Below the pieces are notes generated by a model. It was not told the origin of the DNA. It searched no databases and saw nothing but the letters and a program-made list of their open reading frames with translations. Position numbers and translations under genes: made by a program. 64,000 nucleotides of DNA from an uncultured Lachnospiraceae bacterium (GTDB taxonomy: Bacteria; Bacillota; Clostridia; Lachnospirales; Lachnospiraceae). Below are positions 4,888 through 37,544 of the stretch, in pieces. Numbering within the stretch: the first letter of the stretch is position 1; each line of letters starts with the position of its first letter. The stretch is taken from contig CASYOT010000002.1 in NCBI GenBank assembly GCA_949484645.1, positions 2,912 through 66,911 of the forward strand, written 5' to 3'.

Positions 4888-5496
4888 AATAATCGCTTCT
4901 TTCTGATAATTATTTATAATGTATTAGTATATCACAGGAGTATAGCATGTAACAAGAATTTTTTGTAATGATTCCTGTTATTGATTTCTGTTATAAATAA
5001 TAGAAATGGTTAGAATGAAATAATTCGTAAATGATTGTATTTAATATGTATAAAGTTAAATTAAGGATAAGCCGATAAAAAGAATAAGAGTTAAATTGCG
5101 TTTTCTATCAGCATGGAAGCTGTATTTTATTCAGGGAGGAAGAAGAAATGACGAAAAGGAAAGACATGCAGCGAAAAATTGCATGGGGGGGGAAAATCAG
5201 AATCTACTAAAAAGTGGAAAAAAATTCAAACTTTATATGGATTATCTCAAGAGACGTTAGGGGCAATTTTTTTGTTGCCTTTTTTTTGGTGTCTGCCGTT
5301 TGATCCGGTTATGGCTTGTAAAGGATATAAGTGTGTTGGGATAAGAATGGATAAGAATTGTTGGAAGGACGCCTATGTTTGAAACAAAGACAGCATGGGA
5401 AACGCAGTGAATATACTACAATTCTTTTTTTGCGTTTTATAACATTTTTTGCAACAGAAGATAATATGCCAAAATAGCTGGGAAGAAGGAATTAAA

Positions 5497-7077
5497 ATGA
5501 ATTTAGAAGCTGAATTTGAACGGTTAAAAACATGTTCCCGTATTTTGATTTGGGGCGGCGGTTATCATACGAAAGAGGCGCTAAGGTTTTATAAATCTTT
5601 TTTTAGGGAACGGGACATACAGATTGTAGATAAGAATAAGGCAGGCCAAAGCATAGAAGGATATAAAATTATTGCTTCAGATGAAGCAGATTATTCGATT
5701 GATTATGTTGTGATTATGTCGTCAATATACCATGATGAAATTGAATATGCTTTGCGGAACAGACATGGTTATCAAGGGGCAGTGATAGGTTTATATGCGT
5801 TTCGGAGAGTTCTTTTAAAACTGGATTCATATGAAGAATGTATTGGGCATATGGAAGATTTTGTGTCTCATATGGAACAAGGCATAGCAAGTTATTCTTA
5901 CGACTATATATTTCAAGAAAACTATAGCGTATATAAAAAAATAAGGCTATATGCGTTTTGGGCGTCTTCTATTGGTGAATCAGTCCGGTATTTATCGGCA
6001 TATTATGAAACTGTTTTTAAGGATAAGGCAGAAGATGAATACTGCCTGTTAATTCCCTATATAAAAGGGAATGATTTCGCGAATGGGCAATTTATAGAGG
6101 TTGTTTCCCGTACAGTTCCTATGGTTACATATTGCAACTGTCATTTTTGGGAGTATGCGGTGAAAAAGTACAGAGAGCGTTTTGATTTGACGTCTTATAA
6201 TGAATTTAACGGTATTTTAGTGGATGCATATAATCAATTTGATGAACGGATTATAAACAGGACGTTTTGTGATAAAAAGTTTCCTTTGATTGCCTATACG
6301 CCGGAAGAACGTAAGATGGCGGAATATAAATTAAGGCAAATGGGCGTTTTTGGAGATTTCGTGTGTATATTTGCAAGAGATAACCACTATTTGCAGCATC
6401 AGTATGGACAGGCTTATGGAATTAATGAAATAAGAAATATGGATATCAATTCTTTTAAATCTGCAGTGGATTATTTGGAGGGACAGGGAGTAAAGGCAGT
6501 CCGCATGGGAAAAGTTGTCAACGGGCCGGTCAATCTGCCAAACTGCATAGATTATGCGGCGGATTTCCATAGCGACTTTATGGATTTATATTTATGCGGT
6601 AATTGCAAGTTTTATGCAGGGAGTTTGTCTGGGATTGTTGCGCTTGCCCAGCTTCAAAGCGCGCCTGTGGTTTTGCTCGGGGTGGTTCAGCTGGGGATTC
6701 ACAATTCAATACCATATAGGAGCAGAGATATTTACGTCCCAAAGAAAATATATGACAAAAATAAGAAACGTTTTTTAAATTTTACGGAAATATGGGATGC
6801 GGAAATGGCCGCTAAGGACAAAATATCAAAATATTATGGGGAACACGGGCTTGAGTTTATAGAGCTTGGCAAAGAAGAAATAAAAGAAGCGATAGTGGAG
6901 ATGAACGATAAATTAGATGGAGTGTATCAGGAAGACGAACAGGAAAAAGAACTTCAAAAGAAATATCATTTGCTGTTGGAAAACTGGATATTAGAGAATG
7001 GATACCAGTATTCTTATTTCTTGCATATTGACATAAGCGGCAGTTTTATTAAAAAGAATACATTTATGCTTGCATAG
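5497..7077 (+). CDS. hypothetical protein with PglD_N-like Rossmann N-domain and large uncharacterised C-terminal domain (possible transferase)
   Basis: Start chosen at MNLEAEF with GAAGGA RBS (track start 5449 also possible); N-terminal RILIWGGGYHTKEAL...IVDKN resembles the N-domain of paralogs at 26583, 28033 and 30528; no confident family. Confidence 0.4.
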   Translation: MNLEAEFERLKTCSRILIWGGGYHTKEALRFYKSFFRERDIQIVDKNKAGQSIEGYKIIASDEADYSIDYVVIMSSIYHDEIEYALRNRHGYQGAVIGLYAFRRVLLKLDSYEECIGHMEDFVSHMEQGIASYSYDYIFQENYSVYKKIRLYAFWASSIGESVRYLSAYYETVFKDKAEDEYCLLIPYIKGNDFANGQFIEVVSRTVPMVTYCNCHFWEYAVKKYRERFDLTSYNEFNGILVDAYNQFDERIINRTFCDKKFPLIAYTPEERKMAEYKLRQMGVFGDFVCIFARDNHYLQHQYGQAYGINEIRNMDINSFKSAVDYLEGQGVKAVRMGKVVNGPVNLPNCIDYAADFHSDFMDLYLCGNCKFYAGSLSGIVALAQLQSAPVVLLGVVQLGIHNSIPYRSRDIYVPKKIYDKNKKRFLNFTEIWDAEMAAKDKISKYYGEHGLEFIELGKEEIKEAIVEMNDKLDGVYQEDEQEKELQKKYHLLLENWILENGYQYSYFLHIDISGSFIKKNTFMLA

Positions 7078-20955: not shown

Positions 20956-22641
20956 ATGAGAGAAGATGAGCTTTTAGAATATGGAATACAGCAGTTTGAG
21001 AAAGAAATATACGAGGAAGCTTTAGAAGCGTTCGTTTTATTACATATGAGAGAATATAACCAAGAGGAAATCTTAAAGAATATCTATTCGTGTTATATGG
21101 AAGGGAATGAGGGGCAGTTTCGGGAGACATATGGACGTTGTAGTATTTTTAAGGAGATTCCCTATGAAGAATGTTTGCTCGATTTTGTTCCATATAAAGA
21201 AGGGGAATATTTTATTTATGATAAATTAAAAAGGGGGTTTTTGGGAACTCTTTCTTTGCCTGAAATTGAGCGTGAAAAAGAGCTGAATAGAGAATTTGAT
21301 GATATTGCGGTAGAACTTGACTGGGACTGGCGGTTGTTTAAGCCTGCTTTGAAGTGGACGGGCAAACATAAACTATACGCCATATGCCATGACAAACGGC
21401 GCTCGGTTTCATTCTGTAAGATCCCTGAAATGGAAAAATATTTTCAGAAGGTGTTTGCGTTTGGGGATCGAGAAGAATACCGGCAATATTTCCATACAAA
21501 TACCAGCGTATTTTTGCCACGTTTTTTTTGGGGGAATCAGGATGACAAACTTGCTTTGGCGCATATATGGGAGGAGGAGCACGCTTACCGTCTTACGCCT
21601 CAGGGAAGGAATACAGAGAATGTTGTGTTGTCAATCGGGATACCGACGCATGACCGTGGGAATTTAGCTTTGGAAAAAGTGGTAAATTTGCTGACGATGT
21701 GTTATGACGCAGAAATAGAAATACTGGTTTCTAAAAATGGTATGGCGTTATATCAAGAGGAATATCGTAAAATTGCCGCAATTTCTGATGCGAGGCTTCG
21801 TTATGTGGATCATAATAAGGAACTGACGGCGGATATTTCATGGATAAAAACGGTTGAGCTGTCGAAAGGACGGTTTACGTTGCTGGTCAGTGATGAGGAT
21901 AGTGTGATTATTGAAGCGCTTGATCACTATCTTTCAATGCTTTTGGAAAATCCGGAATTGATTTTTGTAAGGGCAAAAACGGCGCTGCAATATAGTTTTA
22001 TCACGACAAAGGAGATGAAAAAAGGAATAGACGCCTTTTCTCAGGTTTTTCTCCAGAATAATTATTTATCCGGCGCAATTTTAAGACGGGAGGCTTTTAT
22101 GCGGCTTCCATTTGAAAAAATTAAAGAGGAGGCCAAAAGCAATGCGTATTATATTTCATATACGCATGAATGGTGGTTTTGCTTTTTAAGTTTCGAAGGA
22201 GATTGCCGTTTGGATGGAGAATGTCTTGTTGAAGAAGGAGACTCTGTACGGGAGAAACAGGGGGAGCAGTACAAAAAACGGGGAGAAGACGCATTGTCTG
22301 CCGGATATGATTCAGATGGGGGCCTGCAAAGTTATGCCACATATGAGAGCAGGCTGGAACAATTTAAAGGATACATTGAGTTTATTCACTATATAGAGGG
22401 AAAAGGCGGGGGAAATCTGGCGCAAAAAGGGGTTAAACTTGCAATCAACAAAACAATCAGTCTGATTAAATTGGCGTATTTTGGATTTCATTATAAGACA
22501 GATGAGATTATGGAAGTGTTGGACAAGTTTAGCAGGCTTTGCATATCAGCAGTGGAAGAATTTGCTTTTACTGCGGAGGAGAAAGAGTCGCTGCTTCGGA
22601 TATTGCTTCATCAAATTCAAAATGGTGGATGGGAAATATAA
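20956..22641 (+). CDS. large GT2-domain protein with helical N-terminal domain (paralog 1), candidate glycosyltransferase
   Basis: Central VVLSIGIPTHDRGNLALEKV...LLVSDED segment resembles a GT2 Rossmann/DxD region; start set to M26 (ATG 20956) with GGATGAGGGGG RBS; 562 aa. Confidence 0.55.
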   Translation: MREDELLEYGIQQFEKEIYEEALEAFVLLHMREYNQEEILKNIYSCYMEGNEGQFRETYGRCSIFKEIPYEECLLDFVPYKEGEYFIYDKLKRGFLGTLSLPEIEREKELNREFDDIAVELDWDWRLFKPALKWTGKHKLYAICHDKRRSVSFCKIPEMEKYFQKVFAFGDREEYRQYFHTNTSVFLPRFFWGNQDDKLALAHIWEEEHAYRLTPQGRNTENVVLSIGIPTHDRGNLALEKVVNLLTMCYDAEIEILVSKNGMALYQEEYRKIAAISDARLRYVDHNKELTADISWIKTVELSKGRFTLLVSDEDSVIIEALDHYLSMLLENPELIFVRAKTALQYSFITTKEMKKGIDAFSQVFLQNNYLSGAILRREAFMRLPFEKIKEEAKSNAYYISYTHEWWFCFLSFEGDCRLDGECLVEEGDSVREKQGEQYKKRGEDALSAGYDSDGGLQSYATYESRLEQFKGYIEFIHYIEGKGGGNLAQKGVKLAINKTISLIKLAYFGFHYKTDEIMEVLDKFSRLCISAVEEFAFTAEEKESLLRILLHQIQNGGWEI

Positions 22642-22938: not shown

Positions 22939-24654
22939 ATGGGAAATAGAATATTAGATTATGCTTGTGAACAGTTTGAGAGCCGTAATTATTGTGAAGC
23001 GTTGGAAGCGTTTGTTTTAGCTTATATGAAAGGTTATGAGCCGGAATGGGTGATTGAAAACATTTATAATTGTTATGTGGCTTGTAATGAGCCGGAATTT
23101 CGCAATGCTTATGGAAAGTGTGGGGCAGAGGTAAGCTATGAGGATTGCGTGTTGGACTTTATGCCTTATAAAGAAGGGGAATATTATATTTTTGATAAAG
23201 AGCGAAAGCAATTTATTGGAAAGTTCTTAGTTTCAGAACTAAAGATGGTTTCATCAGAGGAAGCATTAAATGAAATCGAGTTTGGCGCGGTGGCGGAAGC
23301 GTTCCATTGGAATCTGAAGGAAGAATATCAACTGCTTGCGGCGGCAAAAGACAAGAAAGTGTATGCAGTCTGCCATGAAATCAATTATATTTCTTCCTTT
23401 TATAAAATACCGGAGTTAGAAGAATATAATAAAAATGTGAAATTGTTTCAGGATTTCAGTCAGTTTCAGCAATATTTCCATAAAAATACGGGAGTTTATC
23501 TGCCCCGGATTTTGTCAGGGGATTTAGAGAGTGTAAAAGAATTAAATGAAATAGTTGAAGCGGAACATCAATTTAGATTAACTCCGGAGGGACGCAATAC
23601 AGATCACGTATTGCTTACGATTGGGATACCTTCACGGAATAGAGGGAATCTTTTGTTAAAACGGCTGGAAAATCTGCGGAACATAAAACTGGATGCGGAA
23701 ATTGAAATTGCAATTTCGAAAAACGGCGTGGATTTCTATCAGGAAGAATATGATCAAGTGAATCAGGCGCAGGATTCCAGAATTTGTTATTATGATCATC
23801 ATAAGGATTTGGTGGCGCCTGAGAATTGGCATTTTGTGGTAGAAATGGCGCATGGGAAGTTTGTATTGCTGGTTTCGGATGAAGATGACATTATTTTAGA
23901 TTCTTTAGGGCATTATCTAAAGCTGATAACGGAGTATCCGCAAGCGAGTGTGATAAGGGCAAAGTCCTGCATATTTTATTCACGTTTATCGGAAAGATTG
24001 TATGCGGAAGGGACGGATGCATTAAAAAAAGGATTTTTGAAGCAAAATTATTTGTCAGGGTTGATTTTTAACAGGGAAAAGTTTCTAAAGCAAAATTTGC
24101 TGCGGTTAGAAAAATTCCGGGAAGATAATTTATATTATTGCCTGTATCCGCATGAGTGGTGGTGCGCCATTTTGTCAAAAAACGGCGTTTATATGGAAGA
24201 ACCGTTTTTGTTGGTTCAGGAACGTGAGTCTGTGATTCAGGAAGAAAACTCAAAATATATTGAAAAAGGAGTGATAGAAGAAGGAGAGCATATTGCAAAG
24301 GGAACAAGTCTGCCGGCGTATTCCACATATGAAAGCCGCTTACAGCAGTTTTTGGGCATGATGGAATTTGTGCGTTGGATTGCAGATGGGGATAAGGAGC
24401 TTGCTTTTTTTTGCGTTGCAAGTTGTATAAGTAAAATTTTATTTCTATTGCTGCTGGCAAGGGAGAGGGGGTATGAAGTCTCAAACTTTATGAATATAGT
24501 TGATAAATTTTGCAAAATGTCTATTGAAGCAATCCGTGAGTTTGATTTTTCTGAGGAACAGCAAGTGAAGTTATTATCAATATTAAAAACAAGCGCAATA
24601 GAAACATATGGGCAAGAGAGGGAGATTTTTGAAAAAGAACAGAATGCAGGATAG
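22939..24654 (+). CDS. large GT2-domain protein (paralog 2 of 20956..22641)
   Basis: Aligns with paralog 1 over its whole length (EALEAFVL..M..Y...I.NIY.CY......F...YG.C; GIP..NRGNL; LLVSDED; HEWW); AAGGGGATGAAGGG RBS. Confidence 0.55.
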   Translation: MGNRILDYACEQFESRNYCEALEAFVLAYMKGYEPEWVIENIYNCYVACNEPEFRNAYGKCGAEVSYEDCVLDFMPYKEGEYYIFDKERKQFIGKFLVSELKMVSSEEALNEIEFGAVAEAFHWNLKEEYQLLAAAKDKKVYAVCHEINYISSFYKIPELEEYNKNVKLFQDFSQFQQYFHKNTGVYLPRILSGDLESVKELNEIVEAEHQFRLTPEGRNTDHVLLTIGIPSRNRGNLLLKRLENLRNIKLDAEIEIAISKNGVDFYQEEYDQVNQAQDSRICYYDHHKDLVAPENWHFVVEMAHGKFVLLVSDEDDIILDSLGHYLKLITEYPQASVIRAKSCIFYSRLSERLYAEGTDALKKGFLKQNYLSGLIFNREKFLKQNLLRLEKFREDNLYYCLYPHEWWCAILSKNGVYMEEPFLLVQERESVIQEENSKYIEKGVIEEGEHIAKGTSLPAYSTYESRLQQFLGMMEFVRWIADGDKELAFFCVASCISKILFLLLLARERGYEVSNFMNIVDKFCKMSIEAIREFDFSEEQQVKLLSILKTSAIETYGQEREIFEKEQNAG

Positions 24655-26582: not shown

Positions 26583-28040
26583 TTGGAACGGTTTGAATTA
26601 ACGGAAAAAACTAAACTATGGATTTACGGGGCAGCTTTTGGAGGGACGCTCTTATATGAAAAACTGCATAAGAATCATTATCAGGTGGAAGGGTTTATAG
26701 ATAAAAGGGCAGAGGAAATAGAGAGTTTATGCGGGCTTTCCGTCTATAGCGTAAAACAAGCCAAAGAACGTATGGGACGTGGGCAGCTAACAGTCATTAT
26801 TTCAGTGAAAAATGTGTTTGAACATAGCGGCATTGCCAGAGAGTTAATAAAAAATGGAATTACAAACATCATTTATAAGCCATATGCGGCTCTGAAAGGA
26901 TTTGCAGACGAATCAGCAAAAGAAATGTTTGAGCTTCATAATCAGTTGATTGATTGCGGCTTTTGTAAGGGCGGCAGGTTTTGCAGGGCGGACGAAATAG
27001 AAAAGAATTGGGAAATCCCAAAAGAATATCTGCTGGCCAAAGATTCCAAAATGCAGACAGTTTTTCTGCCTCTGCCTATGCTGTTTGAAAACCAAAGCGT
27101 TACGGGCGGATATAAGGAACGGAATGTTTGTTTTTTATATCCGCACATACAATTCTTCCGGTATCTTCAAGGAGAAGCCGGCGCTTCCTGCCAGCGCTAT
27201 CTGGAGTATTGTGAGATGGCAGTGGAAGAATTGGATTCTTTTCAAGTTACGGAAGCGTGGAAAGAAAATGTGATCCGAAACAGGGCAGATGTGTTTTACC
27301 AGATGAACCATGCGTTTTTGTTCCAGAAAGATTTTTTTGTCAGAAATTCGCCAGAGGCGGAATGGAATGAGGACGGATACTTTAACTTGAAAAGCGGGAA
27401 GCACAGAGCGGCATTTTTTGCCGCCCGCCGTCAGATGTATATTCCCGTAAAGATCACTCATTCGGATGCAGAAAAATGGATTTCTGAGGATAGGGCAAAT
27501 GAGGTGAAAAAAGAGCTTTTACAACAGGGCGTATTTGAATTAAAAGCTCCGGTTGAGCATCCATTTTTTTATCAGATGCCATGTACGGCAGAGAATTTTT
27601 TCTATGGCGTATGCTGTGCGTTGGCAGATGAACTCGGCGGGTTGTATTATCAAACGCCAATGGATCATGTACTGAAAGGCAAAAAGATATATTTGAATGT
27701 AGATGATTATGGGTTTGTCAGCCGTTTTTTCAGGAGAAGCGGGGCTATGGCATACGATGCCGATGAGAGGGACCGGAAATTGAAAGAAGCGTTAGAAAGG
27801 TTGTTTTCGCTTCGTTTTGGGAGGCTTGTCGCCGCTCAGGAACATTACGACTTGGCGGTGTTCAAAACAGACTGCCCGCAAAATTTGAAGCAATGTCTGG
27901 AAACTATTTTTGCGGATCATTATTTTATCCTTGCCCCAGAGAGTATTTTGTTGGAAACTGAGCGGATAAAAAGAGTTTATTGCGGGGCTGCGTGGGGAAA
28001 AAGCATGGTTTTGTGGCATTTGGAGAAATGTAATGTTTGA
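26583..28040 (+). CDS. uncharacterised protein family member 1 (PglD_N-like Rossmann N-domain + central DGHHR-type motif)
   Basis: TTG start after AGAGGGA RBS; N-domain KLWIYGAAFGGTLLYEKL...VEGFIDKRAEEI; central YFNLKSGKHRAAFFAARRQMYIPVKI; paralogs at 28033 and 30528. Confidence 0.5.
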   Translation: MERFELTEKTKLWIYGAAFGGTLLYEKLHKNHYQVEGFIDKRAEEIESLCGLSVYSVKQAKERMGRGQLTVIISVKNVFEHSGIARELIKNGITNIIYKPYAALKGFADESAKEMFELHNQLIDCGFCKGGRFCRADEIEKNWEIPKEYLLAKDSKMQTVFLPLPMLFENQSVTGGYKERNVCFLYPHIQFFRYLQGEAGASCQRYLEYCEMAVEELDSFQVTEAWKENVIRNRADVFYQMNHAFLFQKDFFVRNSPEAEWNEDGYFNLKSGKHRAAFFAARRQMYIPVKITHSDAEKWISEDRANEVKKELLQQGVFELKAPVEHPFFYQMPCTAENFFYGVCCALADELGGLYYQTPMDHVLKGKKIYLNVDDYGFVSRFFRRSGAMAYDADERDRKLKEALERLFSLRFGRLVAAQEHYDLAVFKTDCPQNLKQCLETIFADHYFILAPESILLETERIKRVYCGAAWGKSMVLWHLEKCNV

Positions 28041-29463
28041 CATTCAAAAAGAGAGCAGGATAGTCCTTTACGGGCATTCGCAATTTGACATTGTGAAAGA
28101 TAAATTCCGGGAACTAAAAGAACGTGGATATCAGGTGCTTGGATATATAGATCAAAGGGCAAAAGAGATTGAAACGTATGTACAGGCGCCTTGTTGGACA
28201 GTAGAAGATTTTCCAGTTGGGCTAAAAGAACGCCAAGACATCGTAATTATACTGTTATTGCAAAATGCGCGGATGCATGAGTCCGTTGTATCTTCACTTT
28301 GCGGCAGGGGATTTAAAAAATTTTTATTTATACCAGAAAAAGCGGATACATCTGAGAAAACATGTATGGTGCAAAAGTACAATGCCTTTATACGGTCAGA
28401 ATATGATGAGTTGATGGGGATTCCTGAATGGGACAGCTTGTGTTTAAATTCTGTAAAAGGTGGAAAGCGGTTTTTGAAATGTGGAAAAGAACGCTGTACG
28501 CTTTTGGTTCCGGTGGAAATGCTGTTTCTTTATGAACAGGAGCAGTCTTTAGAAGAAAACATCGCGTTTGCAGAGGATTATCTGGAGTTATTTGCGGTAT
28601 TGGAAGGAAAGGCATTTGAATGCGGCCGTTATTTTGATTTCATGGGAGCGGTGGAGAAGGAAGAAAAAGAAAAATTACTGGCTGACCGTTTGGCGTTATA
28701 TTGTTTGTGGGAACATTACAGACACTGCGATATAAATTATTTTATAGAAGCGGCTGCGCTTGTTTCATGGAACCGGAGAGGATATTTTAATATTATTGAC
28801 GGGCATCATAGAGTGATTTATCTGATGGCAAAGGGGTATAAGAAGATTCCCGTATCCATGCCGCTTAAAGATTATGATAAGTGGATAGGAGAGGCAGATC
28901 AGGCATTGTCCGCTGCGCTGCGCAGATTGCGCGTCCCAATTCCACATCCGTTTTTTTTGAATGAAGAATGTATCTATGAAACGCACTGGCAGAAAGTGAT
29001 TCATTATTTATATGCGGCAGGACAAAGCAGGGACTGCAGGTTTGTGGAAATAGATACTTATATGGGATATTATGCGGGGGCTTTCCAGAGAATTGTAAAA
29101 AAAGAAGCTCTGATAGTTTTAGAGAATGAGACGGATAAACGCTTATGTGAAAGTATGCAAAGGCTCATGCATCAAAAAATACCCATTTTGAACTATCCAG
29201 AAATTATGTTTCGCGAAACCGATCTTGTCTATCTGAAATTGGCTGGAAATGAGGAAGCGTCTTTTATGCGTTTTATAAAGGACGTAACTGGACAGTGTAT
29301 TTTGCTGGATATTCCTTGGGAAGAAGAAGGGAAGACGTTAAAAGAGGCTGTCCGCATTCTTGGGGGAGATTTGAAACAGATAGGCAGTTATCATAGAGAT
29401 AAGGCGTATGGAATTTATGTGATTGAAAGGAGTGTTGGCAATTATGGCAGAGGTGACGACTAG
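28033..29463 (+). CDS. uncharacterised protein family member 2
   Basis: RIVLYGHSQFDIV...VLGYIDQRAKEIE N-domain; YFNIIDGHHRVIYLMAKGYKKIPVSM motif (ParB/sulfiredoxin-like DGHHR); 8-nt overlap with member 1. Confidence 0.5.
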   Translation: MFDIQKESRIVLYGHSQFDIVKDKFRELKERGYQVLGYIDQRAKEIETYVQAPCWTVEDFPVGLKERQDIVIILLLQNARMHESVVSSLCGRGFKKFLFIPEKADTSEKTCMVQKYNAFIRSEYDELMGIPEWDSLCLNSVKGGKRFLKCGKERCTLLVPVEMLFLYEQEQSLEENIAFAEDYLELFAVLEGKAFECGRYFDFMGAVEKEEKEKLLADRLALYCLWEHYRHCDINYFIEAAALVSWNRRGYFNIIDGHHRVIYLMAKGYKKIPVSMPLKDYDKWIGEADQALSAALRRLRVPIPHPFFLNEECIYETHWQKVIHYLYAAGQSRDCRFVEIDTYMGYYAGAFQRIVKKEALIVLENETDKRLCESMQRLMHQKIPILNYPEIMFRETDLVYLKLAGNEEASFMRFIKDVTGQCILLDIPWEEEGKTLKEAVRILGGDLKQIGSYHRDKAYGIYVIERSVGNYGRGDD

Positions 29464-30469
29464 AAGCCTTAAAAATGAAAGGACAATACTGCGGGACGTT
29501 GTCCCGGTGGACACGCCTTTTTTATTAGGCATATTTTTAGGCGATATATGTAATTTTAAATGTAAATACTGCATTCAGTCTGCAGATGAATCCGTTGAGG
29601 AGAAAAAACAGTTAGTAAGGAAATTTTTAGAGTGGGAAACATTTCTTAAAATTGCAGATTCTGCAAAACAATTTCCGAAGAAAATTAAAACGGTATTGCT
29701 GACAAGCATCGGGGAGCCTTTACTGCATCCGGAAATTGTAAAGATGTTAGAGTATATGAACCGGATTGGGCTGGCGGATAACTATGAAATCATTACAAAT
29801 GCATCTATGCTTTCTGTAGATTTGGGAAGACAATTAGTGGATGCAGGGCTTACAAGATTATGCGTTTCGCTTCAGGGGCTGACGGCGGAAAAATATAAAG
29901 ACGTCTGCGGTGTAGAGATAGACTATGATGCATTTTACCAAAATTTAAAGAGTTTTTACGAATACAGCAGGGGAAAGTGCAGCGTACATATTAAGACAGT
30001 GGATCTTTCGTTAGAGGACGGTGAAGAAGACGCATTTCTAAAACTCTATGGTCCGGTATGCGACACGATTTACATTGATAAAGTCGCTCCGGTGTTTAAA
30101 GGCGTAGATTATAGCGGCATTGTGCTTGACGGGGAGCCTTATACAGAAGATAAATACAGGCAAAATGCGGCTGTGTGCTGTAGTTCTATTTTTTATACAT
30201 TGTATACGCTTGCGGACGGACGGATCGCTCCTTGTTGTGACCATCCGCAGCCGGTTATTTATGGGGACATTAACCAGACTGGGCTTGTGGAAGCATGGTC
30301 TTCTGAAAATAGAAAACGGTTTTTAAGACAGCATTTGACCCATAAAAGATGCGAAAACGGCATTTGCGCACAGTGCGCCGCGCCGCTTGTAAGAGAGTTT
30401 GACAGTGATAAGTTAGATGGCTGTGAGGAAGCAATCTTGGCCCGTTTAGAGGGGGGTATTTTTCATTAA
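29444..30469 (+). CDS. radical SAM enzyme with SPASM/twitch-like C-terminal Cys cluster (paralog of 16981..17994)
   Basis: CNFKCKYC motif; C-terminal CCSSIF...CCDHPQ...C...C cysteines; start set to ATG 29444 after GAAAGGAG (track TTG 29423). Confidence 0.75.
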   Translation: MAEVTTRSLKNERTILRDVVPVDTPFLLGIFLGDICNFKCKYCIQSADESVEEKKQLVRKFLEWETFLKIADSAKQFPKKIKTVLLTSIGEPLLHPEIVKMLEYMNRIGLADNYEIITNASMLSVDLGRQLVDAGLTRLCVSLQGLTAEKYKDVCGVEIDYDAFYQNLKSFYEYSRGKCSVHIKTVDLSLEDGEEDAFLKLYGPVCDTIYIDKVAPVFKGVDYSGIVLDGEPYTEDKYRQNAAVCCSSIFYTLYTLADGRIAPCCDHPQPVIYGDINQTGLVEAWSSENRKRFLRQHLTHKRCENGICAQCAAPLVREFDSDKLDGCEEAILARLEGGIFH

Positions 30470-30527
30470 CGAGAAGAAATTTAGTTTTCAAGATGCAGAA
30501 GAAGTTTATATATATGGCGCATCTTAT

Positions 30528-31757
30528 ATGGGTTCCGTCACAGGAAAAGCTTTGTTGGAAAATGGAAAGCGGATATGTGGGTTTATAGACAAACGGGCAA
30601 AGGACATACGACAATGCATCGGGTATCCGGTCTATGACATTGAGACATTGAAAAAGAAAGCGGGCAGACACGCTGTGATTTTTGTGGCGGTGAAAAATGT
30701 TTTTTATCATATGGACATTGCAGTGGAATTGTACGCAAATGGCTTTGAGAGAATTATATATAAGTCATGCCATGCCATTCATGGAACGATGTCAGGGGAA
30801 GAACAGTTATTAGATAAGGCGTATGAACTGATATATAAAACAGGGGACATTCCGGATTTTGAGATACCTATTGTACTGCCAAAACAGGAATTTCAATGGA
30901 CGCCAAGCAGGATTCTTTTAGAAACAGAGGAATATGTGACATTGAACGCGCCGTTAGAACAGATTTATACGGGAGTGACTGCGGCGAAATGGACAAATAC
31001 GCCCGTTTTGTCATTAATTCCGTATATTGAACTGTTCCGTTATTTTGAAGGGGACAGCCAGTGCAGGCCAGATGATTATATTGCGCTTTGTGAGGAAGGG
31101 GCGCGGAGTGAACAGATTGAAATAACGGATAGTTGGAAGCAATATGCGCTCGAAAACCGGTTTCATATTTTCGGGCAAATGCGGTGGCAGTATGAACATG
31201 AACCTGAGTTTTTTACCGTACAGGCGCCAGAGGCGGCATGGGACAAAAGGGGATATTTCCGCCTGCTGACCGGCAAGCACAGGATTTGTTTTTTGATTGC
31301 GATGGGAAAGACAAGCGCGCCGCTGAAAATTCGCAAAGACACGTGGAGGGCGATCTGTGAAGATCCTAAATTACATGAAATCCGCCAGATCTTAGAACGC
31401 AGCCCAAATGCGCAAATGCCGCTTCCGCATGTTTATTTTCAGGGAAACCGGCAGTTTCATTGTATATTCTATCAAAAAAAGCTGAGAGAACTTTATTGGC
31501 AGATGTACAAAACCGGAAAAATGTGTGGGCAGGAAAGAGAAACTTTAGAAATTCTCGATCAGACGCAGGACAGCGGATATTTTTCCCTGATATTTTCACA
31601 GATGGGCTTTTGCGTCTACAGGGATTTCAGACTGTCTTCTGATAAGAATGAAATTTATCAGAAATTGGGAATGAAAATTTCAGAACGGGCAAATAGCGCT
31701 TCAAAAACGCGGATAAGGCTGGATGGGGAGGGGAATTTTCAAAATGAAAACGACTGA
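30528..31757 (+). CDS. uncharacterised protein family member 3 (annotated start probably N-terminally truncated)
   Basis: YFRLLTGKHRICFLIAMGKTSAPLKI motif and GFIDKRAKDI N-domain; the conserved N-terminal segment ...AEEVYIYGASY is in frame upstream of ATG 30528 with no in-frame ATG, GTG or TTG before it. Confidence 0.45.
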   Translation: MGSVTGKALLENGKRICGFIDKRAKDIRQCIGYPVYDIETLKKKAGRHAVIFVAVKNVFYHMDIAVELYANGFERIIYKSCHAIHGTMSGEEQLLDKAYELIYKTGDIPDFEIPIVLPKQEFQWTPSRILLETEEYVTLNAPLEQIYTGVTAAKWTNTPVLSLIPYIELFRYFEGDSQCRPDDYIALCEEGARSEQIEITDSWKQYALENRFHIFGQMRWQYEHEPEFFTVQAPEAAWDKRGYFRLLTGKHRICFLIAMGKTSAPLKIRKDTWRAICEDPKLHEIRQILERSPNAQMPLPHVYFQGNRQFHCIFYQKKLRELYWQMYKTGKMCGQERETLEILDQTQDSGYFSLIFSQMGFCVYRDFRLSSDKNEIYQKLGMKISERANSASKTRIRLDGEGNFQNEND

Positions 31758-33288
31758 TTTAGAGTTTGAATACAATGAGCGGGCAGACGGCTATATTTAT
31801 GTGAATGAAGACAAGTTAGAAACAGAGGTAAAAGAATTGCTCCGGTCGGGAAAAGACGTTGAAGCGCTGCGCATGAACGAAGAAATTTCAAGGGAGGCCT
31901 ATCTGTGCCTTACAAAAAAACGGGAAGCTGTTTTAAAGTGGTACCATTTCAAAGAAGAATCTGAGATTTTAGAGATTGGAGCCGGATACGGGGAACTGAC
32001 AGAATATCTTTGCCGCCACAGCAGGCATGTGACGAGTTATGAGAGGAAAACCGAGCGCGCCGACATTATTAAAATGCGCTGCCAGCCATATGGGAATTTG
32101 GACTGCCATTCCGGTTTATTACAAGATATGCGTTGGCAAAAGACATATGATTATATATTTTTGCATGATATTTTAGCATTATCCCGAAAGTTTTTTAAAG
32201 GGGAAGATGCAAGCGTAGAGATGCTTAAGTTTTTGCTTCCATATCTTAAAGAAGACGGAAAATTTATCATAACGGTTGAAAACCGTCTTGGGCTTAAGTA
32301 TTTTGCCGGGGCGGCAGAAGAAATTTCCTCACAGTTTTTTTGGGGGCTTAATCTTTTTGACGAAGATGAAAGAGGCAGGACATTTTCAAGAAAAGAATTG
32401 GAACGGGTTCTGCAAAAAAGTGGTTTAGAAAATATAAATTGGTTTTATCCGTATCCTGATTTGGCATATCCGTTAGAGATTTATACAGATGAAGTCATGG
32501 ATAAAATGGGATATGGGATCTCTATGCCGGATTATGAAATTGTTTCAGACCGTTATCAGTTTTTTGATGAGCAGAGAATGTTTTGGGCTTTAAGGAACGA
32601 GGGGATTGCAAATCGGTTTGTGAATGCGTTTTTTGTGGAATGTTCCAGAAAAGAATCCGGCAAACAGCTTTTATTTGCGGATTTAAAAAATGGATTTACC
32701 ATAAAGGAACAGACAGAACAAGGCTTTATAGACGGGAGTGGGAATCTTCTTCCTAAAGGGGAACGTCTCGATGTGTATCTGGCAGGAAAACTTCAGGAAA
32801 CCGTGAATTGCAATCTGGGCGGCAAGAATCCATTTATATCTGAAATTTATGATGTGTTCCGTGAAATATATTTGTATTTACAGAAGTCTTTTTGCAGGAT
32901 ACAGGATTTCTATTATTCAGACGGCAAGATTGCGCTGCATGAACAAAAGCAAGAGAAAAAACCGGCGTCGGAGTATTGGCGCTGGGAATTGGTTTATGAA
33001 TGGTATTTCAGGCATGTCATGTTTTACAGAAACGCAAAAAGAAGAATTTTGCTGGAAGATTTGCTGGAGATTGTACAGGTAAACACCGGGCATATTGCAG
33101 AATATTTGAAGGTTTGGAAAGATAAGTCAGAGAAGCATTATATTACGCCGAGATTGTCGCAGAATATGTTTGATTTTGAAGCGGAAGCGGCAAAGGATGC
33201 GAGGTATTTTGGGCAGGAACTAATAAATAAAAGGACATTAAAAGATAAATTGGAAAGTATGTGGAGCATAGGCGGGGAAACGGAATGA
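31744..33288 (+). CDS. class I SAM-dependent methyltransferase domain protein with large C-terminal extension
   Basis: ILEIGAGYGELTEYL methyltransferase motif I; start set to MKTTDLEF with GGAGGGGAA RBS; 514 aa. Confidence 0.65.
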   Translation: MKTTDLEFEYNERADGYIYVNEDKLETEVKELLRSGKDVEALRMNEEISREAYLCLTKKREAVLKWYHFKEESEILEIGAGYGELTEYLCRHSRHVTSYERKTERADIIKMRCQPYGNLDCHSGLLQDMRWQKTYDYIFLHDILALSRKFFKGEDASVEMLKFLLPYLKEDGKFIITVENRLGLKYFAGAAEEISSQFFWGLNLFDEDERGRTFSRKELERVLQKSGLENINWFYPYPDLAYPLEIYTDEVMDKMGYGISMPDYEIVSDRYQFFDEQRMFWALRNEGIANRFVNAFFVECSRKESGKQLLFADLKNGFTIKEQTEQGFIDGSGNLLPKGERLDVYLAGKLQETVNCNLGGKNPFISEIYDVFREIYLYLQKSFCRIQDFYYSDGKIALHEQKQEKKPASEYWRWELVYEWYFRHVMFYRNAKRRILLEDLLEIVQVNTGHIAEYLKVWKDKSEKHYITPRLSQNMFDFEAEAAKDARYFGQELINKRTLKDKLESMWSIGGETE

Positions 33289-34151
33289 AAGAGTTGACAA
33301 AGGAGATTATCCAATATATCGGCGCGGTCAAAAAGGAGTATGAAAAGAGGTATCATATCCAGATTTTAATGTGGACAGTGAGAAAATCATTTCTGAGGGG
33401 CTTGGAACGAAAGACAAGTGATTTGGACGTTGTGTTTGTGTTCCAAAATTTAGATTCAAAGAAGAAAAAAATTATCTTTGAGCGCGCAGACCGCAGAATT
33501 GAGCTGCAATGCTGGGACATACAGGATATATTGGAAATCATTGCTGAGAATAAAAGGCGATCTTTACAGGAAAAGAAGTTTTTCCCATACTATAAAAGCA
33601 ATGAGTTGAAACATTATATTTTGGATTATTACCATGGCTTTTATGCCGGCTGGGATTCTGCGCTGATGAAAGATGAGTATGGATTTTGCCAAAATTGCGG
33701 GAAACATATCTTTCATCTTTATGAACCGTTTGTTGTGGCAAATATGTTGTATTTGGATTTAAAAGGGCAGTGTAAACGCGTCGAAATGGGGTATTGGTTG
33801 TCTTTAAATGAATACATTAATGCTATCTGGTCAGGGTTAGCGGGGCTTCATGCGCTTTCAAATGGCAGGCCTTCCGATACGCAGATACGGTTTTTGGCGG
33901 AAACGTATCTGAACGGGGAGGAGGCCAAAATGCTACTAAGCTATGTTGCGCATTTTAAACAGACAGTCCAAAAGCAGAGTAATTACTGCAATATGGAAGC
34001 GTTAAACCAAATGCTTTTGGATCTTAAGCTTAGGCTGGAGAAAAAAATGAAACAGTTTAACATACAAGAGATTGACATAGAAAAAGAACTTTTGGATATC
34101 CAAGGTCAATTAAAGGAAATGAGGAATGTTTATGAAAATTCAAGTTGCTGA
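33285..34151 (+). CDS. putative nucleotidyltransferase-fold (Pol-beta-like) protein
   Basis: RGLERKTSDLDVVFVF resembles the GS-x(n)-DxD minimal nucleotidyltransferase motif; ATGA overlap with the upstream stop; otherwise unrecognised. Confidence 0.35.
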   Translation: MKELTKEIIQYIGAVKKEYEKRYHIQILMWTVRKSFLRGLERKTSDLDVVFVFQNLDSKKKKIIFERADRRIELQCWDIQDILEIIAENKRRSLQEKKFFPYYKSNELKHYILDYYHGFYAGWDSALMKDEYGFCQNCGKHIFHLYEPFVVANMLYLDLKGQCKRVEMGYWLSLNEYINAIWSGLAGLHALSNGRPSDTQIRFLAETYLNGEEAKMLLSYVAHFKQTVQKQSNYCNMEALNQMLLDLKLRLEKKMKQFNIQEIDIEKELLDIQGQLKEMRNVYENSSC

Positions 34152-35937
34152 TTATGTTGCGCAGTTTTTAATGGAAAAAGGAATTACGGATCTTTTTTCA
34201 GTAGTAGGCGGCGGCTCGATGTTTCTAAATGATGCGTTTGGGAGGGCAAAAGGCATACGCTGTATTTATAACCATCATGAGCAGGCCTGCGCCATGGCGG
34301 CAGAAGCTTATTTTAAGTATAAAAACCAAATGGCGGCTGTCTGCGTGACGTCAGGGCCGGGCGGGACAAATGCTCTGACAGGGGTTCTTGGCGCATGGCA
34401 GGATAGCATCCCGTTATTTATTATTTCCGGACAGGTTCGTTATGAGACAACGGTAGACAGTGCAGGACTTCCTTTGCGGCAGTTTGGGGGACAGGAGCAC
34501 CAAATTGTGGATACTGTCAAAAATATAACGAAGTATGCGGCAATGGTGAAAAAAGCGGAAGACGTCAGATGGCATTTGGAAAAAGCGTATGATATGGCAA
34601 TGGATGGAAGACGGGGTCCGGTTTGGCTGGATATTCCATTAAATGTGCAGAGCGCTGAAATTGAAACGGAATCGTTAAAAGGGTTTCAGAAACCTGAGAA
34701 AGACAGAGAAAAGGTTAGAGGGTATGCAGACTCTATTTTGGAGGAAGTAAAGAAGGCGGAACGGCCGTTAATCATAGCTGGTTCCGCAGTACGGTCTTCA
34801 GGCGCGCAAGACGTTTTTCTCAGGCTGTTGGAACGGCTGCATATTCCGGTGACATATCCTCTGGTCGTGTCTGATTTGGTAAGCAATGAGAATCGTCAGG
34901 CGGTAGGCTGTTTTGGAGGGGCAGGGACGAGAGCCGGAAATTTTGCAGTCCAAAATGCGGATCTACTGCTTGTGTTTGGATGCAGAATGGCATTTTCCCA
35001 TATTGGGTTTAATTATGAAAAATTTTCTCCGGCTTCCAGAAAGATTGTAGTAGACATAGATGAGGCGGAACAGTCAAAACCCACGATGAAACGCGATATA
35101 AAAATATTGGCAGACGTACGGGATATACTTGAAGAAATGGAAAAGCGTGATTTATGCGGTATGCCTTCCTATCCAAAATGGAATGCGTATTGTCAGGAAT
35201 TAAAGAAAAGATTTCCGATCTATCAAAAGCATCATGAAACAAGCGAAGATGGAAGGGTCAATCCTTATTTTATGGCAAAAGCATTGTCGGATCGTATGGA
35301 TGAACATGGCATTATCGCGCTTGGCAATAGTTCGGGATTAGATCCAAAACTTCAGTATGGCATAGAGAAACAAGGGGAACGGGTTATTTTAAATTGTAAC
35401 TGCGGTTCTATGGGATACTGCCTTCCGGCAGGCATTGGCGCCGCGGCGGCTTCGGGCAGACGGGTGGTTGTATATACAGGGGACGGATGTATGCAGATGA
35501 ATATACAGGAGCTTTTAACCATTTCTCACAATAAACTTCCGGTAAAAATCATTGTGCTGAATAATAAAGGATATGGCGGAGTGGTCGCTACGCAGACTAA
35601 TTTTTTCGATGGGCATCTGTGCGGCTGTACGGAGGAATCCGGCATCAGTATGCCGGACTTTGAAAAGCTTGCGTATGCGTATGGATTTCAATATGTCAGG
35701 GCCGAGAACCATGAGCAGGTAGAAAAGGCTTTGGATGCATTATTATGTGATGACGCCCCGGCAATATGTGAGGTGTATCAAGATATGATTCAGGGGATTG
35801 AACCTAGGGTTTCAAGCAGGAAGTTAGAAGATGGGACATTGGTTTCAACCGGAATTGATGACTTAGCCCCATTCCTTCCTTTAGAAGAATATGAAGCCTG
35901 CCAATATGAGAATTGGGTGAAAGGCGGAAAAGAATGA
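34132..35937 (+). CDS. ThDP-dependent acetolactate-synthase-like enzyme (second YerE-like paralog)
   Basis: Aligns with the 18021..19805 protein (DLFSVVGGGSMFLNDAF, HHEQACAMAAEAY, VCVTSGPGGTNALTG, GRRGPVWLDIP, C-terminal ThDP motif YTGDGCMQMNIQEL); start at ATG 34132 after GAGGA. Confidence 0.75.
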   Translation: MKIQVADYVAQFLMEKGITDLFSVVGGGSMFLNDAFGRAKGIRCIYNHHEQACAMAAEAYFKYKNQMAAVCVTSGPGGTNALTGVLGAWQDSIPLFIISGQVRYETTVDSAGLPLRQFGGQEHQIVDTVKNITKYAAMVKKAEDVRWHLEKAYDMAMDGRRGPVWLDIPLNVQSAEIETESLKGFQKPEKDREKVRGYADSILEEVKKAERPLIIAGSAVRSSGAQDVFLRLLERLHIPVTYPLVVSDLVSNENRQAVGCFGGAGTRAGNFAVQNADLLLVFGCRMAFSHIGFNYEKFSPASRKIVVDIDEAEQSKPTMKRDIKILADVRDILEEMEKRDLCGMPSYPKWNAYCQELKKRFPIYQKHHETSEDGRVNPYFMAKALSDRMDEHGIIALGNSSGLDPKLQYGIEKQGERVILNCNCGSMGYCLPAGIGAAAASGRRVVVYTGDGCMQMNIQELLTISHNKLPVKIIVLNNKGYGGVVATQTNFFDGHLCGCTEESGISMPDFEKLAYAYGFQYVRAENHEQVEKALDALLCDDAPAICEVYQDMIQGIEPRVSSRKLEDGTLVSTGIDDLAPFLPLEEYEACQYENWVKGGKE

Positions 35938-36845
35938 AACTTTGTTTAGGGACTGTCCAACAGGGATTGGAATATGGGATTAATAATAAGTATGGAAAGC
36001 CTTCAAAAGAGTATAGCCAAAAAATCTTTTACGAAGCGGTAAAGCATGGGATTACAATGTTTGATACGGCAAGGGCATATGGAGATGCAGAATTGCTTTT
36101 GGGGGAATATTTAAAAGAACATGGGAATCGAAATGAAATCAAGATCATATCAAAACTCCGTCCGAACATACTAGAAGGTTGTAAGGATATATACGATACG
36201 ATATGCCGGGAATGTGAAGGCACTTTAAAGCGGATAGGCGTAGAATCCTTAGACGGATATTTGCTCCATACGCCGGAGTACATCCGAGATCCCAAAGTCG
36301 TTTCGGCTCTTTTAAAATTAAAGGAGGAGGGATATGCTTCGCATATAGGCGTATCCATTTACAATATAGAAGACGGGGACGTTGCAATCAATACGGGGGC
36401 AGTTGACTATATACAGCTTCCTTTTAGCATATTTGACCAGCGCGGAAAAAACAGCGGATTTCTCCGGCGGGCAAAAGAAGCCAAAATTACGGTATTTGCA
36501 AGAAGCATATTTTTGCAGGGATTGTATTTTATGGATGCGGGCAGTCTGCCGGAAAAAGTGAAACGGGCAGAGCCTATGCTGCGGAACTGGGAGCTGATTT
36601 TAGAGGAGCGTCACGCCAATCGGGAAGAAGTCTTAATTGAATTTGTGAAACAGTCCAAAGAGATTGATTATCTTGTGTTTGGAGTAGACACAGTGGAACA
36701 GTTACAAAGAGATATTTCTGTATTCGAAAGCGAAAGTAAATTAGATGAAACTATTTGGAACATAATCGGAGAAAAATTTTCCGATGTGGAGGAAAGCATT
36801 ATAATACCAAGTTTATGGGCGAAACAAGAAAGGAAGGGAAAATGA
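35934..36845 (+). CDS. aldo/keto reductase family oxidoreductase
   Basis: MKLCLGTVQQG...FDTARAYGDAELLLGEYL and IGVSIYN AKR signatures; ATGA overlap with the upstream stop. Confidence 0.75.
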   Translation: MKLCLGTVQQGLEYGINNKYGKPSKEYSQKIFYEAVKHGITMFDTARAYGDAELLLGEYLKEHGNRNEIKIISKLRPNILEGCKDIYDTICRECEGTLKRIGVESLDGYLLHTPEYIRDPKVVSALLKLKEEGYASHIGVSIYNIEDGDVAINTGAVDYIQLPFSIFDQRGKNSGFLRRAKEAKITVFARSIFLQGLYFMDAGSLPEKVKRAEPMLRNWELILEERHANREEVLIEFVKQSKEIDYLVFGVDTVEQLQRDISVFESESKLDETIWNIIGEKFSDVEESIIIPSLWAKQERKGK

Positions 36846-37544
36846 TGGGAGCAAAAAACATTTTTTTAACGACAGAAGGGGACGCATGGTATAGGAGAAA
36901 CCGTGAAAAGTTAGAAGAAGAAAGTGGATTTTCGGCGGTGGATTTAATGATTGATTTTCTAAATAGACAAAAAAAATCTCTGGGGGGGGGTAAATGGCTT
37001 TTCGTGGGATAAGCTGAATATTTTGGAAATCGGGTGTAGTTATGGATATAATCTGGCAAAGTTTTGCGAATCATTTTCTTGTCAATGTTATGGAATTGAA
37101 CCGTCAAAAGAAGCGGTAGAAGATGGAAATAGAAGATATAAGGATCTGCCAATTCAATTAACTCAGGGAACAGGGGATCTTTTGCCGTATGAGGCGGAAT
37201 CTATGGATGTGGTTATAATGGGATTTTGCATGTTGTGGATGGAGCGGAAAGACATATTGCAGGCATACGCGCAAGCAGACAGAGTTTTGAAAACAAATGG
37301 GATTATGATGGTTTATGATTTTGATGCGAAAATGCCATATCTTAGGGATAATATCCATAATAGAGAAGTGTTTACATATAAAATGGATTATGCGCAGCCG
37401 TTCATGGCTTTTCCAAACTATTATTTAATGGATAAGACCGTATTTTGCCATATGGGAAATTTTTTTGACAAAAGAATACAGGAAAGAATATCTTTGCAGA
37501 TTTTATATAAAGAGTCTTTGGAGGATGCGTATAGGAAAGGATAA
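36842..37544 (+). pseudogene. SAM-dependent methyltransferase, frameshifted at an A8-G9 homopolymer (candidate phase-OFF copy)
   Basis: Two consecutive ORFs (36842..37006 and 37023..37544) together align to the intact paralog 37571..38266 (about 85% nt identity); the reading frame breaks at the G9 tract 36982..36990; an 8-G version restores ...SLGGVNGFSWDKLNILEIGCSYGY.... Confidence 0.7.

Follow-up and report, generated by a model that had tools for sequence, protein, structure and literature searches.

To our knowledge, sulfiredoxin and two free L-serine kinases, SbnI of Staphylococcus and SerK of Thermococcus, are the only small-molecule enzymes with the ParB/sulfiredoxin (ParB/Srx) fold. 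In all three, the pocket binds ATP or ADP and a phosphoryl group is transferred, and SerK and SbnI are metabolic enzymes, not DNA-binding proteins (PMC5120207; PMC12704722). Box II of the ParB-CTPase fold is the P-motif GxxR, the Arg of which is needed for nucleoside triphosphate (NTP) binding, and Box III is often absent from noncanonical members of the fold (PMC12704722). A 2025 survey of fusions of this fold, which used the model PF02195, argues that its functional range is largely unexplored and has no architecture such as the one described below (PMC12704722). Here, we report on a protein family encoded by three open reading frames (ORFs), designated P1, P2, and P3 in their order, within a 64,000-nucleotide stretch of DNA from an uncultured Lachnospiraceae bacterium (contig CASYOT010000002.1 of assembly GCA_949484645.1; the whole stretch is referred to as the window). 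The two serine kinases are the systems that this family would most resemble in the way it works.

P1, P2, and P3 are genuine, significantly related paralogs, as judged from pairwise BLASTP (P1 and P3, 28% identity over 383 aa, E 5e-39; P1 and P2, 24% over 416 aa, E 3e-27; P2 and P3, 23% over 332 aa, E 4e-16). No model reached threshold in Pfam and NCBIfam scans of the three proteins, and the public names of family members all read “hypothetical protein,” for example in a Eubacterium sp. metagenome-assembled genome (MAG). Every one of the 253 homologs of P1 found at E≤1e-3 is nearest to P1. A four-part architecture and a role in glycan tailoring are very probable for these proteins. By analogy with the small-molecule enzymes of the fold, we further propose, with a probability of about 0.4 for the statement as a whole, that a type A protein (P1-like) and a type B protein (P2-like) form a heteromeric, NTP-dependent enzyme of the phosphotransfer type that acts on nucleotide-linked sugars of the flagellin glycan. 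Phosphotransfer, taken by itself, is put forward tentatively, by analogy with SerK, SbnI, and sulfiredoxin, which share the fold and transfer phosphoryl groups.

A preliminary description of this DNA had pointed out three ORFs of 409 to 485 aa with a common architecture, had called the family uncharacterized, and had placed P2 and P3 on either side of a gene for a radical S-adenosylmethionine (SAM) enzyme with a SPASM domain. The coordinates (Table 1), the alignments, and the database scans agree with all of this, and the motifs that it quoted do occur in the sequences, where they make up the best-conserved columns of the family. Its observations thus stand in part (the ORFs, the motifs, and the flanked radical-SAM gene), with a fourth member discarded and a C-terminal domain missed. 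Its interpretation is likewise partly supported, as far as an uncharacterized family with a ParB/Srx motif is concerned, and is given up with regard to the fourth member and a recent triplication.

An AlphaFold2 model of P1, built from the family alignment, has a mean predicted local distance difference test (pLDDT) score of 91.8 and a predicted template modeling (pTM) score of 0.89. In this confident model, the protein is predicted to consist of four parts: an N-terminal Rossmann domain, a helical subdomain, a ParB/sulfiredoxin core, and a C-terminal methyltransferase-like domain. Residues ~106 to 250 (residue numbers follow P1 unless stated) comprise a linker helix, a small β unit, and the conserved helical subdomain (H188, Y206, C210, and T-x-x-W-K-x-N-V-x-x-N-R), and residues ~251 to 335 carry the block F-F-x-R-N-A-P...W-N-x-x-G-Y-F-N-L-x-S-G-K-H-R...Y-I-P-V. 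The long, conserved helix formed by residues 224 to 247 (TxxWKxNVxxNR) and the FFxRNAP loop precede the core strands. In the 62-sequence family alignment on which conservation was measured, ~48 columns are at least 90% conserved, and D40, R42, N77, H81, F252, G272, H274, and R275 are invariant. Conserved polar residues are found in the N-domain (D40, R42, E45, K76, N77, E80, and H81) as well as in the helical subdomain and core (H188, Y206, C210, T223, N229, N233, R234, N262, N268, K273, H274, and R275). A conservation pattern with so many polar residues appears enzyme-like and supports the proposal of an enzymatic A/B unit.

The core has the β-β-[P-motif]-helix-β order of the ParB/Srx superfamily, and its P-motif agrees with the GxxR of Box II, with Gly and Arg invariant, His nearly so, and the forms SGKHR in P1, DGHHR in P2, and TGKHR in P3. 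Foldseek comparison with the Protein Data Bank (PDB) gave weak E values (0.04 to 1), and the top ~37 matches were almost all PadC, Srx, Noc, KorB, SbnI, ParB, and Osa. P2 alone has weak matches to SbnI, SerK, and PFIN (Osa) at its own residues 235 to 276, exactly at DGHHR. A profile of 24 B-type sequences matched SbnI when searched against the PDB (5uje; E 4.1e-4), with the P-motif and the next β strand in register. Among the same 24 members, 17 matched PFIN (best E, 1.6e-4) and 6 matched ParBc_2, all below threshold, and PF02195 (ParBc) was not matched by P1, P2, or P3 in the Pfam scan. Predicted structure and sequence together support an assignment to the ParB/Srx fold, yet a remote one, in line with the earlier reading of GKHR and DGHHR as a motif of the ParB/Srx type. 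The H-R form of the P-motif found in the family is seen in SbnI and occurs also in SerK and Srx, which are phosphotransferases of the fold.

The C-terminal domain of P1 has a Rossmann-like class I methyltransferase fold, so that the two-domain layout given in the preliminary description was incomplete. Were this domain catalytic and the resemblance to ParB incidental, the family would consist of ordinary SAM methyltransferases, which is highly improbable. The METHYLTRANSFERASE-like domain is degenerate: GxGxG is found in 0 of the 62 sequences (last 170 residues), and among these sequences there is no conserved acidic residue after β2 and no column of the domain that is at least 90% conserved. 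Motif I, which is E/DxGxGxG in SAM-binding class I methyltransferases, reads D-D-x-G-[FY]-x-x-R-x-x-x-R-x-G in this domain. In addition, several type B partners of ~300 to 320 aa wholly lack the domain, P1 and P3 match no methyltransferase model in Pfam or NCBIfam at E≤1, and the conserved columns cluster in the N-domain and the ParB-like core. An active methyltransferase was rejected for the C-terminal domain on account of the lost SAM motifs, and this loss, the low conservation, and the dispensability of the domain in some partners are why it is best read as a scaffold. The outcome that had been named beforehand as decisive against a ParB/Srx-type family, a confident methyltransferase or FkbM-type fold without a ParB-like domain, is not what the searches and the model returned.

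Alignment of all locus members separates two ancient subtypes. Type A has an intact Gly loop, V-K-N-V-F-E-H, the residues H188, Y206, and C210, and S-G-K-H-R, whereas in type B the N-domain is degenerate and the P-motif takes the classical form D-G-[HLM]-H-R; P3 groups as A-derived, with T-G-K-H-R. The locus set comprised 36 nonredundant loci including the window, three duplicates having been removed, and two of these could not be judged because their contigs are too short. Of the 34 informative loci, 31 have an A+B pair, and in 27 of these 31, the two genes are directly adjacent, with spacings of -74 to +63 nt and a frequent 4-nt start/stop overlap. B precedes A in 24 of the adjacent pairs and A precedes B in 3; the A-then-B order is found in the window, L001, and L005, which are triple loci, and likewise in L018. 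The order of the window (A, B, radical SAM, A′) is kept in L001/L002 and L005. This conservation, along with the recurrence of the pair, indicates a conserved multisubunit set of two ancient subtypes plus an A-derived copy and not, as the preliminary description had it, a recent triplication with diversified specificity. Successive genes in the window overlap (8 nt for P1/P2, 20 nt for P2/radical SAM, 3 nt for radical SAM/P3, and 14 nt for P3/methyltransferase), which suggests cotranslation. We take the recurrent pairing as a sign either of a heteromer or of steps with obligatory coupling, and on the basis of gene adjacency, we give about even odds to a type A/type B heteromer as the working unit, with P3 as an extra A-derived copy.

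An obligate pair of A and B proteins would also suit a noncatalytic role, in which the A and B domains dimerize upon NTP binding, like ParB CTP switches, and, jointly with the pseudo-methyltransferase domains, assemble or regulate a tailoring complex of the nucleotidyltransferase, the methyltransferase, and the radical-SAM enzyme as an NTP-gated scaffold, the N-domain holding the nucleotide-sugar. Canonical members of the fold are NTP-dependent dimerizing switches (PMC12704722). The catalytic degeneration of the C-terminal methyltransferase fold, the fusion of some members to catalytic partners (a methyltransferase and a pyruvyl transferase), and the substitution of the P-motif His in several lineages with retention of the Arg are consistent with such a scaffold. 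However, the N-domain and the helical subdomain contain many invariant polar residues in addition to those of the P-motif, a pattern seen more often in active sites; some B partners (~300 to 320 aa) are entirely without the pseudo-methyltransferase domain; and the H-R variant is the form found in the enzymatic members of the fold. We consider the scaffold unlikely.

In the heteromeric enzyme that we propose instead, the ligand held by the N-terminal Rossmann-like module would probably contain a nucleotide, an NDP- or CMP-sugar (nucleoside diphosphate or cytidine monophosphate) being one example. The ParB/Srx core with its G-x-H-R P-motif, located between the N-module and the inactivated methyltransferase-like scaffold, would be the catalytic or ligand-binding part. 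The A/B unit would bind ATP, ADP, or CTP and would phosphorylate a flagellin-glycan sugar intermediate at a hydroxyl or an acidic group, in a step that would act in concert with the Pol-β/RlaP-type nucleotidyltransferase, the SAM methyltransferase, and the radical-SAM/SPASM enzyme. A bolder version is improbable: that the A/B heterodimer is the first ParB/Srx-fold enzyme system of glycobiology, its pocket handling a cytidine- or uridine-linked sugar (or an NTP plus such a sugar), and that it furnishes a nonulosonic or branched-chain flagellin sugar with a substituent that is phosphate-linked or activated in some other way.

Several findings weigh against the proposed enzyme. Neither Box I (the C-motif helix and the loop that touches the base) nor Box III of the fold is recognized with confidence in the family, and the catalytic Glu of SerK and SbnI could not be mapped onto it. 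Type A has Ser, not Asp, before the P-motif Gly, and the P-motif His is replaced in some members (SGRNR, SGKSR, DGHNR, and DGMTR), with the Arg kept. A uniform catalytic mechanism is thus not guaranteed, and not every subunit need be catalytic. The N-domain has weak matches to Rex, succinyl-CoA ligase, and GFO_IDH_MocA, so that NAD(H) or CoA is an equally possible ligand. Finally, two loci (L024 and L028) carry type A alone within ±10 kb.

The likeness of the N-domain to NeuD/PglD, on which the preliminary description had drawn, is present in weak form and lies below threshold (PglD_N, E 0.19; TIGR03570, 17.2 bits versus a cut-off of 160.8). As it had stated, no hexapeptide repeats follow the domain, since the Pfam scan gave no Hexapep match. 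The protein taken for a fourth member, with its start placed at 5497, is a TIGR04372 glycosyltransferase (Table 1). A family hidden Markov model (HMM) did not match it even at E≤10, and BLASTP found no match between its N terminus and that of P1, so that it has at most a superfamily-level N-domain in common with the family. At the family loci, fusions join a PglD_N/C2185-like module to domains of the radical-SAM, FkbM methyltransferase, GT2, and pyruvyl transferase types (proteins with such fusions are L006_7374, L022_7213, L028_3700, L026_8965, L038_13253, L024_6136, and L010_5328). In L006_7374, the N-module is accompanied by a C-terminal region read by eye as hexapeptide (left-handed β-helix) repeats. 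Because one module joins many catalytic domains in these loci, a role as a portable handle for a common nucleotide-linked substrate fits the PglD_N-like module.

The family is small (~700 clusters), given that an exhaustive profile search of 1.84 billion representatives found 719 clusters (defined at 50% identity) at E≤1e-3 and 613 at E≤1e-10. P2 as the sole query found just 8 clusters, all without names, and a short B-type profile had no matches in a 5.8-billion-protein database. A scan of 185,579 species genomes yielded 34 loci, almost all of them in Lachnospiraceae, including the isolates Eubacterium plexicaudatum ASF492, Lachnospiraceae bacterium 10-1, and CE91-St56; the carriers outside this group include one Treponema, one Victivallales, and one Selenomonadales MAG. 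Lachnospiraceae bacterium 10-1 and its relatives (L034 to L037) form a divergent branch in which type A has S-G-R-N-R (His to Asn). In one member of this branch, 769 aa in length, the fusion includes a further PglD_N-like module (Pfam C2185-like_N) and a C-terminal domain with no assignment. That the 769-aa L034 protein includes a nucleotidyltransferase like the one at 33261 to 34151 was rejected: BLASTP gave no similarity, and Pfam returned just the second C2185-like_N. The branch adjoins genes for a DltA-like AMP-binding enzyme and a weakly DltD-like protein, which hints at amino-acid esterification chemistry there.

The first gene of the window, represented by its 3′ end, encodes a flagellin, and a gene for a Maf glycosyltransferase comes next; for this reason the ~54-kb sugar island after Maf is a flagellin glycosylation island. 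It contains a pseudaminic-acid-type pathway that was called complete (PseB at 25571, PseF-like at 38187, PseI at 40387, PseG at 41443, PseC at 42454, and a PseH-like GNAT at 43595 to 44047, which matches TIGR03585 below the cut-off at E 1e-9). A legionaminic-type pathway at 48186 to 55020 was also called complete and includes a PglD-type LegH (48186 to 48845). On account of this LegH and of the PseH-like GNAT, the idea that the family substitutes for the PseH N-acetyltransferase was rejected. Also present are heptose genes and a CDP-3,6-dideoxyhexose pathway (CDP, cytidine diphosphate), with RfbF/RfbG/RfbH-type genes at 44129 to 48145 (RfbH, 710 bits). The combination of this pathway with a thiamine pyrophosphate (TPP) enzyme recurs in most family loci, and we take the TPP enzymes and Rfb genes to resemble YerE-type branched-chain (yersiniose-like) sugar biosynthesis. 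Synteny is kept in L001 and L005. The island ends near 55 kb, and riboflavin genes (56232 to 59295) and biotin genes (60244 to 62929; a bioW-bioF fusion and bioD) lie beyond it.

Neighboring genes were counted by clustering all ORFs of the 36 nonredundant loci and scanning the representatives with Pfam. An RlaP-type Pol-β nucleotidyltransferase (PF10127; E 1.4e-12) is the closest and commonest neighbor, found at 19 loci at a median of 1.3 kb from the type A gene, and the nucleotidyltransferase of the type encoded in the window (33261 to 34151) is found at 8 further loci. TPP enzymes are encoded at 25 of the 36 loci (median distance, 8.3 kb), PglD_N+FkbM methyltransferases at 18, CDP-sugar enzymes (RfbF/G/H) at ~17, SPASM radical-SAM enzymes at 15, NeuB at 14, homologs of the methyltransferase at 31723 to 33288 at 9, and polysaccharide pyruvyl transferases at 8; short-chain dehydrogenases/reductases are also recurrent. 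Two proteins of 1064 to 1068 aa (P0201 and P0210) begin with a homolog of the window methyltransferase (E 2e-27) and continue as a type A protein, and in L010_5328, a polysaccharide pyruvyl transferase is joined to a type B protein. These methyltransferase and pyruvyl-transferase fusions are direct functional links. For the radical-SAM gene between P2 and P3, the ATG start at 29444 is supported by the gene call in a near-identical contig (L039).

Table 1. Positions of the family genes, their domains, and other features of the window (position 1 is the first nucleotide of the window)
Feature	Position	Strand	Details
P1, canonical type A	26583..28040	+	485-aa ORF
P1 N-domain, residues 1-105	26583..26897	+	PglD_N/Rex/CoA-binding-like Rossmann module
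P1 N-domain motif IYGAAFGG	26622-26645	+	
P1 N-domain motif GFIDKRA	26691-26711	+	
P1 N-domain motif VKNVFEH	26805-26825	+	
P1 helical subdomain and ParB/Srx-like core, residues 186-335	27138..27587	+	SGKHR P-motif at 27393-27407
P1 C-terminal class I methyltransferase-like fold, residues 336-485	27588..28037	+	Degenerate SAM-binding motifs
P2, divergent type B partner	28033..29463	+	476-aa ORF; DGHHR P-motif at 28798-28812
P3, A-derived	30465..31757	+	409 aa from ATG 30528, probably 430 aa from ATT 30465; TGKHR P-motif at 31269-31283
PseB (UDP-GlcNAc 4,6-dehydratase, inverting), directly upstream of P1	25571..26572	+	TIGR03589, 508 bits versus cut-off of 408
Radical-SAM/SPASM gene between P2 and P3	29423..30469 (likely start ATG 29444)	+	Pfam Radical_SAM 7e-18, SPASM 3e-8; one of four paralogous SPASM-type radical-SAM genes
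SAM methyltransferase with long C-terminal extension	31723..33288 (likely start 31744)	+	Methyltransf_23, 2.4e-7
Pol-β-superfamily nucleotidyltransferase	33261..34151	+	Below threshold: NTP_transf_2 E 7e-4, 20.3 versus 21 bits; RlaP E 0.6
Flagellin 3′ end	3-170		Last 56 residues; 98% identical to L001 flagellin
Maf glycosyltransferase	763-2685		
TIGR04372 glycosyltransferase with weak PglD_N/C2185-like N-domain	5449..7077	+	TIGR04372 E 2.4e-51; 5497 is an internal Met
SPASM-type radical-SAM paralog	7127-8188		One of the four
SPASM-type radical-SAM paralog	9986-11104		One of the four
SPASM-type radical-SAM paralog	16981-17994		One of the four
B12-binding (methylase-like) radical-SAM gene	12712-14352		
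Acetolactate-synthase/YerE-like TPP enzyme	18021-19805	-	One of two
Acetolactate-synthase/YerE-like TPP enzyme	34126-35937	+	One of two

The occurrence of a TPP enzyme at 25 of the 36 loci bears on another possible reaction, the Srx-like phosphorylation of a carboxylic acid (an unusual acyl donor or a sugar carboxylate) by a carboxylate-activating ligase. The acyl donor would come from the acetolactate-synthase/YerE-like TPP enzyme, an aldo-keto reductase, and methyltransferases, and an amine or thiol held by the N-domain would attack to give an N-acyl nonulosonate or an acyl-CoA. Srx chemistry passes through a sulfinic phosphoryl ester (as cited in PMC12704722), and the N-domain is the module of the PglD/NeuD N-acyltransferases and resembles CoA-binding domains. 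Furthermore, the flagellin of Treponema denticola bears a pseudaminic-type sugar with a 2-methoxy-4,5,6-trihydroxyhexanoyl group (PMC13439194), and a Treponema MAG carries the family. However, the standard N-acetylations are already covered in the window by the PseH-like GNAT and LegH, the TPP enzyme is locus-linked rather than adjacent, and some loci have conventional AMP-binding ligases. The formation of an acyl phosphate by this fold is, moreover, without precedent, and a carboxylate ligase is quite unlikely.

The frequency of genes for CDP-sugars and CMP-nonulosonates at the loci (RfbF/G/H at ~17/36 and CMP-nonulosonate genes at ~14/36) could instead suggest a new glycosyl- or phosphosugar-transferase, in which the ParB/Srx pocket would bind an NDP- or CMP-sugar, with the sugar at the site of the γ-phosphate in the kinases. 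The fold binds CTP or CDP in ParB (PDB 6sdk and 7bm8), and glycosyltransferases with a fused N-domain of this kind occur elsewhere in these loci. Nevertheless, such a transferase has no precedent, conventional GT2, Maf, and TIGR04372 glycosyltransferases are already encoded in the window, and the H-R variant is the one that typifies those enzymes of the fold that use ATP or ADP. We consider this reading very unlikely.

The annotated ATG at 30528 leaves P3 without the “IYG” loop. The upstream frame is open from 30450 and encodes ...EEVYIYGASY, and the in-frame peptide INEKKFSFQDAEEVYIYGASY upstream of this ATG supplies the absent β1 strand and Gly loop. When P3 is read from the ATT at 30465, its family-HMM score rises from 390.0 to 414.5 bits (+24.5), and the alignment begins at profile position 3. 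The annotated ATG is thus probably not the true start, the ATT at 30465 to 30467 being the only plausible alternative, and the seeming loss of the “IYG” loop would be due to start-codon calling. This ATT overlaps the TAA stop codon of the radical-SAM gene, and the same ATT/TAA overlap is found in L005 (~7870 to 7930). A short (TA)n run lies near the P3 start at 30507 to 30515. At the corresponding position, L001 (~13880 to 13940) has an ATG (TAATG) that is out of frame through (TA)8; with 9 or 6 units, the frame would be restored. Initiation at AUU with translational coupling, phase variation through a (TA)n tract prone to slippage, or an error in the assembly could explain this arrangement.

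Two other gene pairs of the island were noted. Tandem copies of a ~230-aa SAM methyltransferase gene are found at 36755 to 37544 and 37571 to 38266, the upstream one being split (36755 to 37012 and 37023 to 37544), which suggests a frameshifted pseudogene or a sequencing error. Paralogous proteins of ~580 aa are encoded at 20881 to 22641 and 22939 to 24654, and a GT2 Pfam match is found in the second only. The first has no Pfam or NCBIfam match whatever and may be a divergent or inactivated glycosyltransferase-like protein.

The four-part architecture and the conserved two-subunit pair extend the ParB/Srx fold to sugar and glycan tailoring. The P-motif Arg and His, along with the D40/N77/H81 cluster of the N-domain, are targets on the way to what may be a new reaction of nonulosonic-acid or branched-sugar biosynthesis. 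If the family did include the first ParB/Srx enzyme of glycobiology, this would be a new catalytic fold for sugar tailoring and, together with the Pol-β nucleotidyltransferase, would help set the flagellar surface chemistry of Lachnospiraceae. Flagellins of Lachnospiraceae are prominent immune antigens (e.g., in Crohn's disease) and ligands of TLR5, and enzymes that decide how flagellin is decorated in gut Lachnospiraceae therefore matter beyond enzymology.

A literature search joining ParB-like proteins with flagellin glycosylation or nonulosonic acids returned nothing relevant, and comparison with described systems brings out how the family differs from each of them. Like SbnI and SerK, type B has a D-G-x-H-R P-motif (DGHHR in P2), followed by the same helix and “iPV” strand. 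Unlike these kinases, however, the family is without their C-terminal domain and has three parts that they lack, namely a Rossmann module at the N terminus, a large insertion made up of helices, and the pseudo-methyltransferase domain; P2 scores only 14.4 bits with the SbnI model (NF033589) and 12.4 bits with the SerK model (NF053625), versus cut-offs of 350 and 380, and the match covers ~40 residues around DGHHR. Furthermore, type A has S/T-G-K-H-R, and the genomic context is glycan rather than cysteine or siderophore biosynthesis. Sulfiredoxin is a single domain of ~100 residues that acts on a protein sulfinic acid, and where its G-C-H-R has the catalytic Cys, type A has Lys and type B has His, Leu, or Met. 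The canonical proteins ParB, Noc, KorB, and PadC differ in that the family does not match PF02195 and has no helix-turn-helix or C-terminal dimerization domain in the Pfam scan, no ParA partner, and no parS context; its neighbors are sugar-biosynthesis genes, and its motif is G-x-H-R, in contrast to the GERR of ParB. PglD, NeuD, and LegH have a left-handed β-helix/hexapeptide domain, which the family lacks; its TIGR03570 score is far below the cut-off, and its C-terminal architecture differs in the model. In WbdD, the O-antigen chain-capping kinase-methyltransferase, the methyltransferase is active and the kinase is protein-kinase-like, whereas the methyltransferase-like domain of the family is degenerate and its putative phosphotransfer module has the ParB/Srx fold. 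A fold described in DNA-segregation clamps, in sulfiredoxin, and in two serine kinases is thus found here in a new architecture and in a new, sugar-tailoring context.

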